Counted from the first letter of the stretch, positions 15,001 to 21,000 are shown. The stretch: 24,580 nucleotides of DNA from Fidelibacterota bacterium (GCA_043822705.1 JBDRBK010000053.1:1-24580), one strand, 5' to 3'. Numbers are program-made.

Positions 15001-18000
15001 CGTTCAGGAAGTTGATCACTTTTTTCGCCTCCGCCGATCCTTCGCGCCATTCGATCCCGGCGTAAACGTCTTCGGTATTTTCGCGGAAAATCACCACGTC
15101 CATTTTTTCCGGCTCCCGCACCGGCGAGGGAACGCCGGCGAAATAAGTCACCGGCCGCACACAGGCATAGAGGTCCATCAACTGGCGCAGCGATACGTTG
15201 AGGCTACGGAAACCGCCGCCCACCGGCGTGGTCAGGGGACCCTTCAGGGCCACATGGTAATACTCGATCGCCGCTATTGTCTCGTCCGGCAGATAATTGC
15301 CGTCGTAGCGGGCGGCGGCGCTTTCACCGGCATAGATATCCATCCAAGCGATTTTTTTCAACCCGGCATAGCTTTTAGCGACCGCCGCGTCCAGCACCCG
15401 CCGGGTGGCGCGCATGATGTCGGGACCGATCCCGTCGCCTTCGATCACGGGAATTATCGGATGGATCGGAACAACCAGGTTATCACCATCCCAAGTAATA
15501 CGTTGCCCGTCAGCGGGAATTTTAATTCTGGTAAATGTTTTCATAAGTCAGACCTGTCTTTTTTGGGCGATAAAATTCAAAGCGCTGCCGGCTTTGAACC
15601 ATTCGATCTGCCGCTGGTTGTAAGTATGTTTCAGTTTAATACTCTCCGTCGTGCTATCGGGGTGGCTGACCTTGAGCGTCAGTTGGCTGCCTGGGGCAAA
15701 TTTGGTGAGGCCGGTTATGCCGACCCTGTCGTCGGGACGGATACGGTCGTAGTCCGCCGGATCGGCGAAAGTCAAAGCCAGCAGCCCCTGCTTTTTCAGA
15801 TTGGTTTCATGGATACGGGCAAAACTTTTCACGATGATCGCCCGACCGCCTAGGTGCCGCGGTTCCATGGCGGCGTGTTCGCGACTGGAGCCCTCACCGT
15901 AATTTTCCTCGCCGACCACCACCCAACCGATGCCGCGATCATGGTAACTGCGGGCGACGGCGGAGATGCCATCGACCTGTCCGGTCAACTGGTTGCGGGT
16001 CCGGCCGGCATCACCAGTCTCGGCATTGACGGCGCCGAGGAACAGATTATCGGAGATATTGTCCAAATGGCCTCGGAAGCGCAGCCAGGGCCCGGCCATT
16101 GAAATATGGTCGGTGGTGCATTTCCCCCGTACTTTCACCAGTACCGTCAGATCGCTCAGGTTATGTCCGTCCCAGGCCGGGAAGGGCGTCAGGGCCTGCA
16201 ACCGCTTACTGTAGGCGCCGATCTGAATCGTCGCATCGCCGCCATCAGCCGGTGGTCGAATCAAGCCGCTTTCGCCTCGGTTAAAGCCGTCCGGTGGCAA
16301 TTCATTACCCCGCGGCGGTTTCAGCTTGATCCGCTGGCCTTGCTCATTTTCAATTTCATCGGTAAGCGGATTGAATGACAGCCTTCCGGCAATCGCCAGG
16401 GCGGTCACCAGCTCGGGGCTGCTTACAAAAGCCAGGGTGTTGGGATTGCCGTCATTGCGGCGGGCAAAATTGCGGTTATAGGAGGTGACGATCGTGTTGC
16501 GTTCTGCTTTTTCGGCGCCGACCCGCTGCCACATTCCGATGCACGGGCCACAGGCATTAGCCAGGACCGTGCCACCGAATTCCCGCAGAATCTCCATATG
16601 GCCGTACTGTTCCATTGTGGCGCGAATCTGTTCCGATCCGGGCGTGATGTAAAATTCGGTTTTCGCCTTCAATCCCTGATCCAACGCCTGGCGCACGATA
16701 CTGACGCAGCGCTCGATATCCTCGAAACTGGAGTTGGTACAACTGCCGATCAATCCGGCGCTGACCCGGTCGGGGAAATCTTCGCTGGCGACCGCCGCTT
16801 TCATGCCGGATACGGGCCAGGCGCGGTCGGGTGTGAATGGACCGTTCAGATGCGGCTCCAGTTGGTCGAGGTCGATTTCGATCACCTGATCATAGTATTT
16901 TTCCGGGTCAGCCAGCACTTCCTGGTCGGCGGTCAGATAATCATGCATATCGGCCGTAATATCCGCAATCGGATTGCGGCCGGTGGCGCGCAAGTATGTT
17001 TCCATCCGTGTGTCATAGGGAAATACCGAAGTGGTTGCCCCGATTTCGGCGCCCATATTACAGATCGTAGCTTTACCGGTGGCCGAGATCGAATGTGTTC
17101 CTTCACCGAAATATTCAACAATGTACCCCGTGCCGCCCTTGACCGACACCAGTCCCGCTAGCTTCAGTATCACGTCTTTGGGGGCGGTCCAGCCGGATAA
17201 TTTGCCGGTCAGCTTTACACCCAGCACTTTCGGCCATAACAATTCCCAGGGCATACCGACCATCACGTCGACGGCATCGGCGCCGCCGACTCCGATCGCC
17301 AGCATTCCCAGCCCGCCGCCATTGACGGTATGGGAGTCGGTGCCGATCACCAGGGCACCGGGAAAGGCATAATTCTCCAGCACCACCTGATGAATGATGC
17401 CGGCACCCGGTTTCCAGAAATCCAGACCGTATTTCTGTGAAACACTTTCCAGAAACCGGTATACCTCGTCATTTTGGTCCAGTGCTTCCTGCAGGTCGGC
17501 GGCGGCGCCGACCCGGGCCTGAATCAGGTGATCGCAGTGGACCGAAGACGGCACCGCCACCCGGTCACGGCCGGCGACAATGAATTGCAACAGCGCCATC
17601 TGGGCGGTGGCATCCTGCATGGCCACCCGGTCGGGTCGCAGTTCGGCATAATCCCGGCCGCCGGCAATTTCAGCTGTCGCACCGTGGAAGAGATGGGTAT
17701 ACAGGATTTTTTCACTTAACGTAAGCGACCGCCGGATGATTCCGCGAACGGCATCCAGGTTTTTCCTGTAGTTGTCGTAAAATTCCTGATTCATATCAGC
17801 TCCCTAAAACCCGGATCAATCTTCCGGTTTCGGTTCAAATTCGATTCCCCGTGCATAGCGCCCGGTCAGGCGATATGCTGAGCATTCTTGAAAAAGTCAG
17901 CCATTTTCCGATCGACGGTGCGAACATGGGCGGTGAAATGATCCACCAGCATTTGCTTGACCAGAATGACCAGCCGGGTGGTGCCGCCTTTTTCCTTGAA

Positions 18001-21000
18001 TTCGTCCCGCAATGAGCAGCACAGTTCCTTGAATTCCTCGTGCTGGCGCTTGTGCTCCTCGTATTCCGGATAATTGTATTTTTCCATGTAATGTTCTTCC
18101 AGCGAAAGGTGCTTCTTTACATAATCCTCCAGGAAGCTAAACAATTCATGGATTTTATGGTCGGCCTTGCCGGTGTGGTAGGCTTCAATCAGCAGTTTAA
18201 GATGTTCCACCAGCGCCCGGTGATCATTATCGATCTCAAAAATACCCACCGACAGACTGTCGTCCCAGTTCAGGGCCAATCCTTCCAGATATTCGGTGGT
18301 GACCGATTTGGGTCGTTCCAGCGAAGCACCTAGCAGGCGCGCCCAGATATACCACGCCAAAACACCCTGAGCGCGGGAAACACCGAATAATACCGTATAG
18401 AAGTCGAATTCCTTAATACCATAGTGATAAAGCACACTTCCGGAATGGGCATCCACATTGGGCCAGGGATTCTTGGCTTTGCCATGAATACGTAATATAT
18501 CGGGAACTACCTCATATAGGTTTGAGACAATTTTAAATAGTTCATCATCGGGAAAATGTTGTAATGCAAATTCCCGCAAAGCGGTATAACGAGGGTCGGT
18601 TTTACGCAATACAGCATGTCCAAAACCAGGAATTAGTCTTCCGGCATTCAAAGTGTCCCAGACATATTTCTCAATTTCCTTCTTGGTTGGTGTATGATTA
18701 CCGATTTCCTGACGCATTTTTTCGATCCAGTGCAAAACCTGTTGGTTCGCCATGCCGTGCAGTGGCCCTGCCAAACCATTTAGTCCCGCCGAGAAGGCAT
18801 AGAAGGGATCGGACAGGGTTGAACCGACCAATTGGACCGTATGGGCGGTTACATTGCCGCCTTCATGATCAGCATGCAGAAACAGAAACAGGCGCATAAT
18901 TTCATATACTTCTTTATCCTTAATACCCATCATGTAAGCCAGGTTAGCGGCCCAGTCTAAATCGGGGTGCGGATCAATCCGTATGCCATCCTTATAGGTA
19001 CGACGATAAATATAGGCTGCAATTGTTGGCAGTTTCGCCAAGATACTAAGACTGTCTTCCAGGGCGGGCTCCCATAAGTCCTTACGGACCATTCCTTTTC
19101 GAAATTGCCGGGAAAACTCCGATGTTCCCTGCAATGTCAGCAATGCCAGAGATAATTGCGTCATGGGTGATAATTCTTTGGGTAAATTATCCAGTGTTGT
19201 AAAAACATATTCAGGGACTTCACTATATTTTTTATATTCGTTCTGAATGTCTTGTACGTCATCTTCAGTGGGAAGATTTCCGGTCAGCAATAAATAAAAC
19301 AGACCCTCGGGCAGTGGCTGACTACCTCCTTTAACCGAAGGTAACAGCTCTATTAATTCCGGCAGGCTATAACCTCGGTAGCGAATTCCTTCATCGGGAT
19401 CAAGCATGGAAGTTTCGCAGATCATACTTTTTACACCCCGCGTACCGCTGTAAATCTGTGCAATCGAGACATCCGACACTTTTACATCGCCATAATTGGT
19501 GACCAGATGATTAATTCGGTTTTTCATTGGATCTACCAGCCTGGTCAATTTCTCTTTGAAAGTAGGCATTCTTCCTCCTATTCTGTTAAAGTATAGATGG
19601 TGTTTACACCAAATCCGTTACACAGTCTTTAAAATTAAACCGATAAGCGAAATGAAACGGATTCTGGTCCCCCCGGTCGAAATTACTAATTTATTGATTG
19701 ATAAAACATATGGTTCCTGAAAATTTTTCTGGCCAAGTGGCAAATAATAATCATATAATCACGGCAGGGACAACTCGGGAGAGTCGTCCCTGTCAATCTC
19801 TACAGGATGCCAGCCTTCCAAGGAATGGCATCCGACACAAATAAAAGAAAGCTACTGCTTCTTCGCCAGTTCTTCGGCCCGCAGTTCCTTGCGCAACACT
19901 TTGCCGACCGCCGATTTAGGCAAGTCAGAACGGAATTCGACCTCCACCGGCCACTTGTATTTAGCCAGCTTGTCGTGGCAGAATTCCAGCATTTCTTCGG
20001 CGCTGGCGGTCTGGCCTTCCTTGAGAACGATGAATACCTTGGCCGATTCGCCCCGTTTGGGGTGGGGTATACCGATCGAACAGGCTTCCATCACTTTGGG
20101 ATGCTCGTAATAGACTTCGTCAATTTCCCGCGGGTAGACATTGAACCCGCCGGAAATGATCATATCCTTCTTGCGGTCAACGATGAAAAAGTAGCCGTCC
20201 TCATCCATAGTGGCGATATCGCCGGTAAAAAGCCAGCCGTCCCGCAGTGTTTCGGCGGTGGCCTCCGGACGGTTATGGTACCCGACCATGACCTGCGGAC
20301 CGCGCATGATCAGCTCTCCGGATTCACCGACCGGCATTTCCTTCAAACCGGTATCCAGATCGACGATCCGGCACTCGGTATCGGGAATCGGTACGCCGAC
20401 ACTGCCGATCTTGCGCTCACCGCCGGCGAAGGGATTGATATGCGTCACCGGGCAGGATTCGGTCAGGCCGAAACCCTCCACGATCACGGCGCCGGTGGTC
20501 TTTTCGAATTCCTGGATCACTTCCACCGGTAGCGGGGCGCTGCCCGAGAAGCAGCCGTTGATGCAGGTCATGTCCACCTTGCCGGCTTTGGGATGATTGA
20601 GGATGCCGATATACATCGTCGGCACCATCGGTGCGAAGGTCGGCCGGAATTTGGCAATCGCCTCCAACAGGGCCTCCGGTTGCGGCTTGGGAATTAATAT
20701 ATTTGTCCAGCCGTAATAGATCGCGAAATTCATCGAAGTGGTCAGGCCGAACACATGGAAAAACGGCAGGGCGCCCAGCATGATTTCCTCGCCGGGATTG
20801 AACTGCGGGAACCAGGAGGCGATCTGCTGGACCTGCTTGCTCATATTGCCGTGGGTCAGGATCACGCCCTTGGAAACGCCGGTGGTGCCGCCGGTATACT
20901 GGTAATTGATCGGATCGTCAAAACTGACCGGTGTATTGTCGTGCAACGGTTCGTATAGCGCCAGCAACTCCTTCCAGCGATAGACATCAGCCGCCTCTTT

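Follow-up and report, generated by a model that had tools for sequence, protein, structure and literature searches.

A citrate synthase with a C-terminal bacteriohemerythrin domain in a Fidelibacterota bacterium: a possible oxygen or redox sensor on a central metabolic enzyme

Introduction

The locus described here raises the question of what a hemerythrin domain does at the C-terminus of a citrate synthase. Direct, redox-linked allosteric control of the same step is found in the NADH-inhibited hexameric type II citrate synthases of Gram-negative bacteria, but these belong to a different subtype, sense NADH at an inter-subunit site and have no metal sensor domain. The survey's finding had read the protein as an O2-sensing citrate synthase and as the only one of its genome.

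Results

The fusion is a single gene

The window (the whole 24,580-nt stretch of DNA that was analysed; Table 1) comes from a 3.34 Mb MAG of 218 contigs that is 93% complete with 6% contamination. Profiles of both Pfam and NCBIfam confirm a citrate synthase with a hemerythrin C-terminus on one ORF of 567 aa (567 codons plus stop), which starts at an ATG with AGGAGG 8 nt upstream.

Table 1. Features of the fusion locus, with positions counted along the window.
Feature	Position	Strand	Evidence and remarks
Citrate synthase-hemerythrin gene	17866..19569	-	single ORF; two Pfam and NCBIfam domains; AF2 model
Citrate (Si)-synthase part, eukaryote-like subtype, residues 1-432	18274..19569	-	PRK09569
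Bacteriohemerythrin domain, residues 433-567	17869..18273	-	NF033749; alignment to DcrH-Hr 2avk
Aconitase, mitochondrial type, [4Fe-4S] enzyme	15548..17794	-	TIGR01340, 1113.7 bits; 71 nt downstream of fusion gene
NADP-dependent isocitrate dehydrogenase	14297..15544	-	TIGR00183, 669.1 bits; 3 nt after aconitase
Acyl-CoA ligase family gene, upstream	19852..21636	-	Pfam AMP-binding
Conserved upstream elements	19617..19693	-	TAAATTAGTAATTTC 19679-19693; G-run 19669-19674; TGTAAC 19617-19622

An assembly or gene-calling error that merged two neighbouring genes, in favour of which there is nothing beyond the fragmented and partly contaminated state of the MAG, is hardly credible, because seven species-level genomes of five genera encode the same uninterrupted 567-codon frame. 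The survey had already judged such an error unlikely, having left support for the join unchecked; that support is now provided by two contigs from public runs, X2 (1233 letters, spanning 17863-18668) and X3 (spanning 18209-18484), which both cross the domain junction at ~18273 without insertions or deletions. Moreover, the fused-gene clusters are found on multiple contigs from several sources (P0007 on 8, member P0124 on 20), and the synteny agrees with that of relatives. Plain synthases end 0-3 residues ahead of hemerythrin W435 (alignment A1), so that the junction has no linker and there is no space for a stop plus a start. A two-gene join error is therefore refuted as far as sequence data allow. 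A contig from an RNA library is identical to 18730-18905, which is no proof of transcription.

The synthase part is complete

Citrate_synt (PF00285) was matched over residues 42-421 and along its whole profile, 1-357 of 357 (7.2e-99, 331.6 bits, cut-off 27), and the NCBIfam citrate (Si)-synthase model PRK09569 scored 587.1 bits against a cut-off of 344. The equivalog TIGR01793 fell slightly below its cut-off (593.1 against 619.75 bits), and the match to TIGR01798, of the type I/II bacterial models, was weak (118.8 against 485 bits). Alignment A1 shows no variation at the catalytic and substrate residues H235, H271, H318, R327, D373, R399 and R419, the catalytic role of D373 being one that we assume from pig CS. 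Pig CS is also among the closest solved relatives, together with two reversible (roTCA) enzymes, TtCS of Thermosulfidibacter takaii (8xxd, E 9e-165, 55% identity) and DaCS of Desulfurella acetivorans (7wbr/8xu1, 1.4e-154, 52% identity), both with a TM-score about 0.9 of target. The active-site residues align with those of TtCS and correspond to those quoted for DaCS in part of a preprint (His235, His271, His319, Arg328, Arg400, Arg420*), and they are the same in all three enzymes. In contrast to the fusion, the solved citrate synthases have 418-449 residues and none carries an extra C-terminal domain. By these features the synthase part is a complete citrate (Si)-synthase of the eukaryote type and is predicted to be active.

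That this is the only citrate synthase holds for the 93%-complete MAG, which contains one PF00285 match, as does each of the seven carrier genomes (7/7). There is no obvious candidate for a Re-type citrate synthase among the three HMGL-like genes of the genome, because these are LeuA, citramalate synthase and a 584-aa protein that no NCBIfam model matched strongly.

The tail resembles hemerythrins of signalling proteins

The tail matches Hemerythrin (PF01814) over residues 442-552 (9.2e-12, 46 bits, cut-off 25.3), the bacteriohemerythrin model NF033749 over residues 433-561 (94.8 bits, cut-off 84) and hemeryth_dom TIGR02481 (94.9 bits, cut-off 51.75). The His/Glu/Asp iron-ligand motifs noticed in the survey are all in place. 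Seven Fe ligands are predicted (H450, whose codon is 18220-18222, H487, E491, H506, H510, H548 and D553), and the canonical set of 5 His, Glu and Asp, given as H-HxxxE-HxxxH-HxxxxD in PMC9388753, is kept in 9/9 fused proteins. Of the five features that define hemerythrin sensors in the part of Kitanishi 2022 (PMC9388753) used here, the sequence-level one is found in the fusion protein; others are of a biophysical nature. We expect the tail to bind iron. Its best solved match is DcrH-Hr (2avk, E 8.4e-11), with the seven ligands aligned and the O2 carrier McHr ranking behind.

In an AF2 model of the full protein (mean pLDDT 87.1, pTM 0.82) the tail is predicted as an N-terminal loop (433-443) and helices 444-465, 469-497, 503-527 and 531-562, mostly at pLDDT 82-97, which is the loop plus up-down four-helix bundle of hemerythrins. 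A short helix (425-432; junction blocks at pLDDT 72-82) connects this loop to the C-terminal arm of the synthase, where R419 precedes the tail start at residue 433 by 14 residues. As modelled, the junction puts the hemerythrin N-terminal loop beside the catalytic arm. The domain to which the hemerythrin is attached is presumably the large (dimer) domain and not the mobile small domain, by assignment from pig CS.

The surroundings of the ligands have changed. Residue Q449 is replaced by D in all nine fused proteins (Q in 50/53 free hemerythrins), and F488L and W544H are found in the seven Marinimicrobia fused proteins (F and W each in 52/53 free hemerythrins). Since these substitutions replace nearly invariant ligand-adjacent residues, stable O2 binding by the tail may be altered or lost, and the loss of bulky F and W in favour of L and H hints at a changed cavity.

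A RIC/YtfE/ScdA repair protein was considered and rejected, every hemerythrin hit being of the bacteriohemerythrin type: at E <= 0.001 the protein matched 25 NCBIfam families, with no RIC model among them, and Pfam gives Citrate_synt and Hemerythrin only, with no ScdA-type N-terminal domain. The tail has 14,085 relatives, and 25 multidomain proteins among the best 150 were scanned; six are tandem hemerythrins and 19 have a second kind of domain. All 19 are signalling proteins (8 MCP, 3 HD, 1 GGDEF-EAL, 2 cyclases, 2 kinases and 3 PAS/GAF), which points to a hemerythrin subtype that habitually serves as a sensor module. The other hemerythrin of the genome is a free 143-aa protein encoded on contig C211, which shares 29% identity with the tail.

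The neighbourhood and the host bear on protection and iron sensing

The operon of citrate synthase, aconitase and isocitrate dehydrogenase reported by the survey is borne out, the three genes lying on the same strand in an order conserved in relatives. Aconitase adjoins the fusion gene in all five relatives with downstream DNA (L005, L006, L007, L008 and L009), and the position of isocitrate dehydrogenase is kept in four (L005, L007, L008 and L009). Upstream, across a 282-nt AT-rich spacer, lies the acyl-CoA ligase family gene, for which NCBIfam fatty-acid-CoA ligase models all scored under their cut-offs; among the relatives' loci compared it is upstream in L006 and L007 only. The conserved upstream elements consist of columns invariant in 7/7 upstream regions (alignment A3) and are probably the promoter and 5′ leader. 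No Rfam family was found in the window.

The genome encodes PFOR (1844 bits), two 2-oxoacid:acceptor oxidoreductases and cytochrome bd; searches of this 93%-complete assembly brought up neither a haem-copper oxidase nor 2-oxoglutarate dehydrogenase E1, and four other fusion-carrying genomes have a haem-copper oxidase. Judged by its genes, the host has the profile of an anaerobe or microaerophile. The survey's description of a facultative anaerobe is only roughly right. As to a reversible citrate synthase of a roTCA cycle, the synthase part is akin to TtCS and DaCS and the genome has genes for PFOR and OFORs, but there is no signature in the sequence by which reversible and ordinary enzymes could be told apart. 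The control of a search for ATP-citrate lyase matched nothing anywhere.

In such a host the tail could bind or consume O2 (or NO) locally and shield the [4Fe-4S] aconitase, perhaps also the ferredoxin-dependent oxidoreductases, inside a citrate synthase-aconitase assembly and without regulating the synthase. Citrate synthase-aconitase metabolons are known in other organisms, and both the direct succession of aconitase and the presence of PFOR and 2-oxoacid:acceptor oxidoreductases agree with such a role. HerA and HerB of Campylobacter jejuni, likewise a low-oxygen organism, protect Por and Oor, O2-labile enzymes serving the TCA cycle and of types also encoded here, from O2 damage; unlike the fusion, they occur as free single domains and protect without regulating (PMC4257069, in the part used). 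Fast autoxidation, moreover, is typical of bacterial hemerythrin domains (PMC9388753, in part). However, one di-iron site per enzyme would be a poor O2 sink unless catalytically re-reduced, and no reductase genes were found near the fusion gene. The genome already has a free hemerythrin, the models matched by the tail are those of O2-binding bacteriohemerythrins with no RIC/YtfE repair model among them, and protection leaves unexplained why the tail is joined with zero linker to the synthase and not to aconitase. We consider protection unlikely.

Iron, which the survey had also named as a possible signal, is a somewhat less probable cue. The tail would then fold only when iron-loaded, and the apo tail would destabilise or inactivate (or release) the synthase under iron limitation, so that iron supply would set the output of citrate, which chelates iron and feeds an Fe-S enzyme. 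The hemerythrin-like domain of FBXL5 is an iron sensor, but its ligand set is a variant one. The next enzyme of the pathway, aconitase, requires an Fe-S cluster; on the other hand, no Fur-type or iron-uptake genes were found near the fusion gene. The P1B-5-ATPase, like the fusion, bears at its C-terminus a domain of the hemerythrin-like kind on a non-signalling protein, and whether it senses O2/redox or iron is stated to be unclear; it is, however, a membrane transporter with the variant motif H-HxxxE-HxE-HxxxxD, whereas the ligands of the tail are canonical (PMC9388753, in part).

The fusion is rare, old and under selection

Both Pfam domains are present in nine of the 120 homologues listed, each a protein cluster, and the other 111 are plain synthases. 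This reproduces the count of the survey, whose identities, measured over the first 160 aa, deviate slightly for that reason. The fused homologues are 83, 83, 81, 80, 78, 73, 58 and 55% identical to the query and 567-589 residues long. Carriers amount to 7/401 sampled genomes of the phylum, all from one family, and since only nine clusters among 5.8 billion have the architecture, evolution has not favoured this solution in general.

All nine fused synthases fall into a single clade (SH-like 99) with members as low as 55% identity, and a tree in which the hemerythrin tails are constrained together scores better (p-AU 0.80). By these trees the fusion arose once and has been retained since. Across 21 gene pairs the hemerythrin part shows pS of 0.39-1.01 (mostly saturated) against pN of 0.05-0.20, and its dN/dS is 0.05-0.13 (5 estimable pairs), compared with 0.02-0.09 in the synthase part (8 pairs). 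All seven Fe ligands are retained in lineages whose tails are just 39-40% identical. Selection on the tail is thus strongly purifying. The suggestion that the fusion might be recent and neutral is refuted on both counts, by the synonymous sites saturated between genera and the deep clade on the one hand and by the hemerythrin dN/dS on the other.

The same data weigh against a structural or vestigial tail, kept for oligomerisation, solubility, localisation or other non-sensing reasons on a synthase that behaves as a plain enzyme. The narrow spread fits a lineage-specific accident, and F488L and W544H could signal relaxed O2 chemistry; nevertheless, the low dN/dS with saturated synonymous sites is not what such a tail would show, and a bare four-helix bundle would not need seven ligands preserved at such low identity. 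We regard it as improbable, more so than iron sensing.

Discussion

The reading that we prefer, at a probability of about 0.45, is that the tail is a built-in O2/redox (possibly NO) sensor of the DcrH or Bhr-DGC kind that modulates synthase activity. Ligands, kinship to DcrH, purifying selection and the junction all fit a sensing domain, and the reading is also favoured by the single origin, by the place of the fusion as the only synthase found and by a host in which O2 matters. Against it stand the substitutions beside the ligands, the presumed attachment to the large domain, the rarity of the architecture and the outputs of the characterised sensors. The O2-sensing part of the survey's reading is sustained to that extent, with protection of Fe-S enzymes and iron sensing still live beside it.

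The protein would be an active dimeric citrate (Si)-synthase with a C-terminal bacteriohemerythrin sensor. A change at the di-iron site (diferrous versus oxidised or ligand-bound) would alter the order of the hemerythrin N-terminal loop as in DcrH, where the loop is ordered in the met form, is disordered in the deoxy one and has been suggested to relay a signal to the domain before it (PMC9388753, in part). Because loop 433-443 is joined through helix 425-432 to the arm with R419, which would reach into the active site of the partner subunit, such a change would affect how substrate binds or how the domains close, and with it the rate of acetyl-CoA entry into the citrate synthase-aconitase-isocitrate dehydrogenase branch encoded by the operon. 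As to direction, we infer with a slight preference (about 60:40) that the reduced form is the active one and that oxidation throttles the enzyme. Throttling would spare acetyl-CoA and prevent citrate build-up at times when aconitase and the ferredoxin-dependent 2-oxoacid oxidoreductases, which are O2-labile, are impaired.

Known hemerythrin proteins resemble the fusion in part. DcrH of Desulfovibrio vulgaris (PDB 2avk, 2awc, 2awy) also carries its hemerythrin at the C-terminus and comes from an anaerobic host, but it is a methyl-accepting chemotaxis protein whose output is chemoreceptor signalling and not a central-metabolism enzyme, and it retains F behind its second His ligand and W four residues ahead of the last one, positions at which the Marinimicrobia proteins carry L and H. 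Bhr-DGC of Vibrio cholerae and Bhr-HD-GYP of Ferrovum sp. combine hemerythrin and a catalytic domain in one polypeptide, as the fusion does; both are dimers in which the di-iron redox state switches catalysis, Bhr-DGC being 10-fold more active when diferrous and Bhr-HD-GYP active only when reduced (PMC9388753, in part). Their hemerythrin is N-terminal and their output a second messenger, whereas in the fusion it is C-terminal, the enzyme is a housekeeping one for carbon flux and regulation is only predicted. Among the characterised hemerythrin sensors covered by that part of PMC9388753, the outputs are all signalling or a transporter, with no metabolic enzyme, and we found no description of a citrate synthase-hemerythrin architecture in the literature. 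Because the only detectable citrate synthase of these few uncultured Marinimicrobia bears a well-preserved di-iron domain, it may, if the sensor reading is true, represent the first case of a hemerythrin domain through which oxygen or redox state directly switches an enzyme of central metabolism.

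The fused gene and its genomic context

That the citrate synthase carries a hemerythrin domain at its C-terminus, as reported in the survey's finding, was borne out by Pfam and NCBIfam matches within one ORF. The Pfam profile Citrate_synt matches residues 42-421 over its full length (7.2e-99) and Hemerythrin matches residues 442-552 (9.2e-12). The synthase part (residues 1-432) belongs to the eukaryote-like citrate (Si)-synthase subfamily (NCBIfam PRK09569, 587 bits versus a cut-off of 344) and scores slightly below the cut-off of the eukaryotic equivalog model (593 versus 620 bits). 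The tail (residues 433-567) is a bacteriohemerythrin according to NF033749 (94.8 bits versus 84) and TIGR02481 (94.9 versus 51.75). Features of the locus are listed below; a search of the window against Rfam matched no family. Elsewhere in the window, positions 25-3450 and 5338-7309 hold a 1141-aa DUF4175 protein and then a TPR protein, together with two ORFs of 420 and 176 aa that match no Pfam family; none of these has any relation to the fusion.

Features of the citrate synthase-hemerythrin locus (positions in the window)
Feature	Position	Strand	Remarks
NADP-isocitrate dehydrogenase	14297..15544	-	Downstream of aconitase, same strand
Mitochondrial-type aconitase	15548..17794	-	Downstream of fusion gene, same strand
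Citrate synthase-hemerythrin gene	17866..19569	-	Single 567-codon ORF, ATG, AGGAGG before start
Conserved upstream elements	19617-19693	-	In 7/7 orthologous loci, including L004-L009
Acyl-CoA ligase family gene		-	Upstream of fusion gene, 282-nt AT-rich spacer between

The survey had also judged a wrong gene call unlikely, and this was upheld. The same 567-codon frame occurs at 78-83% identity in six further species-level Marinimicrobia/Neomarinimicrobiota genomes, and the fused clusters are drawn from several archives and many contigs. Moreover, a 1233-letter contig from public run set X2, from a strain ~96% identical, spans 17863-18668, including the domain junction near 18273, and continues into the aconitase gene, whilst positions 18209-18484 are covered by a contig from run set X3, with no indels reported in either. 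Contigs from run sets X1 and X5 leave parts of the gene uncovered, gaps which carry no evidential weight. The proposed operon also holds, with the same-strand order of fused synthase, aconitase and isocitrate dehydrogenase shared by the orthologous loci L005, L007, L008 and L009; in L006 aconitase lies at the locus edge. The full order TldD-TldD-ligase-CS-ACN-IDH...PadR-LolA-MMPL is repeated in L007. As the gene order around the fusion matches that of relatives, the contig is not chimeric. The joining of two adjacent genes by error can be dismissed for practical purposes.

The fusion gene is the only match to the PF00285 profile in the 3.34-Mb MAG (218 contigs, 93% complete, 6% contamination), in agreement with the claim of a single citrate synthase; with ~7% of the genome unassembled, this means the only one found. 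Each of the seven fusion-carrying genomes likewise has one synthase match. No Re-type citrate synthase was evident among the genome's three HMGL-like genes, which are LeuA, a citramalate synthase and a 584-aa protein (contig C55 of the window's genome, 35883-36593; L046:463-2217, - strand). The last contains a weak HMGL-like domain (80 bits), has no NCBIfam match at E <= 1e-40 and, from its size, we would guess it to be a carboxylase or decarboxylase subunit.

Catalytic residues, iron ligands and predicted structure

H235, H271, H318, R327, D373, R399 and R419 do not vary between the nine fused proteins and three plain synthases aligned with them. All but D373 correspond to active-site residues named in a preprint on the Desulfurella acetivorans enzyme, DaCS (His235, His271, His319, Arg328, Arg400 and, from the partner subunit, Arg420*; 10.1101/2024.11.06.622199). 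The iron-ligand motifs claimed for the tail proved complete: H450, H487/E491, H506/H510 and H548/D553 form the set H-HxxxE-HxxxH-HxxxxD in 9/9 fused proteins, given as the canonical hemerythrin ligand motif in the consulted sections of a review (PMC9388753). The closest solved relative of the tail, with its ligands aligned (E 8.4e-11), is the hemerythrin domain of the Desulfovibrio vulgaris chemoreceptor DcrH; a Methylococcus bacteriohemerythrin comes next. Judged by these residues, both halves of the fused protein look functional.

An AlphaFold2 model built on a 90-row alignment (mean pLDDT 87.1, pTM 0.82) places a four-helix bundle at residues 444-562, with the final synthase helix (425-432) leading directly into the hemerythrin N-terminal loop (433-443). 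There is no linker, the ends of plain synthases falling at most three residues from W435 of the hemerythrin. Foldseek matches were synthases of 418-449 residues, none of which carried an extra domain. Prediction of docking between two copies of residues 1-432 and the tail scored 0.00 against a mark of 0.32, without controls, and speaks neither for nor against docking.

A closer inspection of the ligand surroundings revealed Q449D in 9/9 fused proteins, a change that is rare elsewhere. F488L and W544H, also beside ligands, are confined to the seven Marinimicrobia proteins; the F and the W are each present in 52/53 free hemerythrins. DcrH becomes reactive towards peroxide when an extra His is engineered close to its site (PMC3947700), and the three substitutions may retune O2, NO or peroxide chemistry.

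Distribution and origin of the fusion

Nine of the 120 best homologue clusters contain both domains (100, 83, 83, 81, 80, 78, 73, 58 and 55% identity) and the remaining 111 are plain synthases, confirming the survey's count. Using the tail of cluster P0001 as a query recovered only the seven close fused clusters among 216 candidates; the tail of P0010 recovered itself and one methyl-accepting chemotaxis protein (MCP) among 47. No synthase fusion other than the query was present among the best 150 of 14,085 tail relatives in a library of 1.84 billion proteins, and the ESM Atlas returned plain synthase clusters only; further distant or independent fusions could stand below these candidate lists. 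By genome, the fusion was found in 7/9 members of the window's family (5/6 genera); it was not found in the other 192 genomes sampled from the order nor, among 401 sampled across the phylum, anywhere outside the family. These 401 did not include the source genomes of clusters P0010 and P0011.

The nine fused synthases form one clade with support of 99 (FastTree; IQ-TREE LG+G4), which nests among plain synthases whose sources are named Aminicenantes or Acidobacteriota. Sixteen plain synthases from the window's order, among them that of the one unfused genus of the family, form a separate clade (support 100). The synthase of this unfused genus (G003:C36, locus L043) is 46% identical and adjoins neither aconitase nor isocitrate dehydrogenase; its aconitase lies on a different contig (G003:C1:108901-111126) and is 64% identical, versus 77% in fusion-carrying genera. 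From the trees and these identities, the fused gene has the look of a xenologue which took the place of the native synthase. Since the unfused genus lacks the gene arrangement, the three-gene operon and the fused synthase go together. Source names gave a first impression of transfer from Aminicenantes, but other families of the phylum also contain plain synthases of the same subtype that share 60-69% identity with P0010. We have therefore softened that reading and do not name a donor.

The hemerythrin tails of the two deep members are 39-40% identical to that of the window. Even so, a tree constraining all nine tails together scores better than the unconstrained search and stands under the AU test (p-AU 0.80); a fish synthase row (P0013) sits on a very long branch among the 'free' rows of this tree and does not affect the test. 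All nine tails also have Q449D in common, and a single fusion event is the simplest history. Derivation of the tail from the genome's own free hemerythrin was rejected, identity being just 29%.

The survey allowed that the fusion might be recent and neutral. Over 21 pairs from seven 1704-nt genes, the tail differs by 0.39-1.01 synonymous changes per site (mostly saturated) and 0.05-0.20 non-synonymous changes. Corrected dN/dS, computable in 5 pairs for the tail and in 8 for the synthase part, ranges over 0.05-0.13 and 0.02-0.09, respectively. With synonymous sites saturated, dN/dS low and the fused clade deep, a recent neutral fusion was rejected.

Base composition differs along the gene (window 17869-19569). 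The synthase part has a GC3 of 0.44 and the hemerythrin part one of 0.64, with the switch near codon 400; the value is 0.67-0.72 in aconitase, isocitrate dehydrogenase and the upstream ligase; in six relatives it is equal in both parts. The 5' segments are nearest to L004, L005 and L007 and the 3' segments to L006. This mosaic suggests that recombination swapped the 5' 1.2 kb and the upstream spacer (19570-19850) for DNA of a lower-GC relative. Upstream, all seven orthologous loci share TAAATT(A/T)GTAA(A/T)TT ~115-125 nt ahead of the ATG, a G-run 15-40 nt beyond it and TGTAAC ~50 nt ahead of the ATG; these elements matched no Rfam family. The first resembles the Bacteroidota-type -7 promoter box, TAnnTTTG; if it is one, the transcript would have a conserved leader of some 110 nt.

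Metabolic setting and habitat

The phylum is known best from the ocean. DNA matching window 17700-19800 at 96-100% identity occurs in public runs (X1-X5) labelled as biofilm and groundwater metagenomes, and in one labelled as a groundwater metatranscriptome, where a 176-nt contig is identical to 18730-18905. Biofilms or the subsurface thus seem to be the habitat of this member of the phylum.

The genome encodes cytochrome bd (550 bits, contig C177), pyruvate:ferredoxin oxidoreductase (1844 bits), two sets of 2-oxoacid:acceptor oxidoreductase and a VorB-like enzyme. Neither a 2-oxoglutarate dehydrogenase E1 nor a haem-copper oxidase was found in this 93% complete genome. A haem-copper oxidase is present in 6/9 genomes of the family, four of them fusion carriers; in one relative (G001) the subunit I gene (C26:8451-9746, a 711-aa frame) lies ~10 kb from the fusion gene (C26:19523-21220) on the same contig. 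A search for ATP-citrate lyase (PF16114) gave no match and is uninformative, its control having matched in no genome either. The picture is one of low-oxygen organisms whose TCA reactions rely on O2-labile Fe-S enzymes, and in Campylobacter jejuni these reactions likewise rest on O2-labile enzymes, as stated in the excerpt consulted (PMC4257069).

A putative sensor domain acting on citrate synthase

We tentatively favour a role for the hemerythrin tail as a sensor domain acting on the synthase, to which we would give a probability of roughly 0.45. The tail's relatives overwhelmingly serve as sensor modules. Among 25 scanned multidomain relatives, 19 are MCPs, HD-type phosphodiesterases, GGDEF-EAL proteins, cyclases, kinases or PAS/GAF proteins, and six are tandem hemerythrins. 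According to the review (PMC9388753), catalysis is switched by the redox state of the di-iron site in both enzymes studied: the hemerythrin-regulated c-di-GMP enzyme Bhr-DGC is 10-fold more active in its diferrous form and only the reduced form of Bhr-HD-GYP is active. For DcrH it describes an N-terminal loop that has order in the oxidised state, loses it on reduction and is proposed to pass a signal to the preceding domain. In the fused protein the corresponding loop (433-443) is joined straight onto the synthase's C-terminal arm and begins 14 residues past R419, which completes the active site of the neighbouring subunit. A shift in loop order could therefore be felt at the active site. Our guess is that the reduced form would be the active one, by analogy with the Bhr enzymes and since oxidised conditions disable the downstream aconitase and the oxidoreductases.

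Alternatively, the tail could offer tethered protection to aconitase and other Fe-S enzymes, which we regard as unlikely. Iron sensing seems somewhat less probable, and a structural role of the tail slightly less probable still. Lastly, the protein may be a bidirectional, roTCA-type synthase, with the hemerythrin as an O2/redox switch between an oxidative run and a shut or reversed cycle. The nearest solved relatives of the synthase part are the reversible synthases of Thermosulfidibacter takaii (TtCS) and D. acetivorans, and this kinship, the pyruvate and 2-oxoacid:ferredoxin oxidoreductases and the lack of a detectable 2-oxoglutarate dehydrogenase prompt the idea, which we nonetheless hold to be very improbable. 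If true, one protein would act post-translationally as an O2 gate that sets which way the central carbon cycle of a microaerophile runs.

Characterised hemerythrin sensors, as covered in the consulted sections of the review, are only MCPs/chemotaxis receptors, c-di-GMP enzymes and P-type ATPases (PMC9388753). Titles and abstract openings in the literature on both proteins gave no description of a citrate synthase-hemerythrin fusion, and we found no paper on hemerythrin in Marinimicrobia. The word 'citrate' has no occurrence in the main text, S2 figure excluded, of a 2016 survey of 56 hemerythrin architectures (PMC4919030). We would class the fusion as a hemerythrin-domain sensor whose type of output is new. 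A predicted soluble dimer, a simple colorimetric assay and a clear truncation control make the hypothesis testable within weeks. In DcrH, following signal transfer was blocked by insolubility, as noted in the same sections (PMC9388753); with the fused synthase, enzyme kinetics and crystallography could for the first time trace how a signal passes out of a C-terminal hemerythrin domain.

Should the tail shield aconitase instead, it would be a tethered form of the Campylobacter HerA principle. If the biochemistry agrees with a sensor, this would be the first direct di-iron control of central carbon flux: exerted at the first committed step of the TCA cycle, it would let O2 or redox state act on flux without a transcription factor or second messenger, and it touches on the means by which bacteria of low-oxygen settings, with their O2-labile Fe-S enzymes, live through transient exposure to oxygen.
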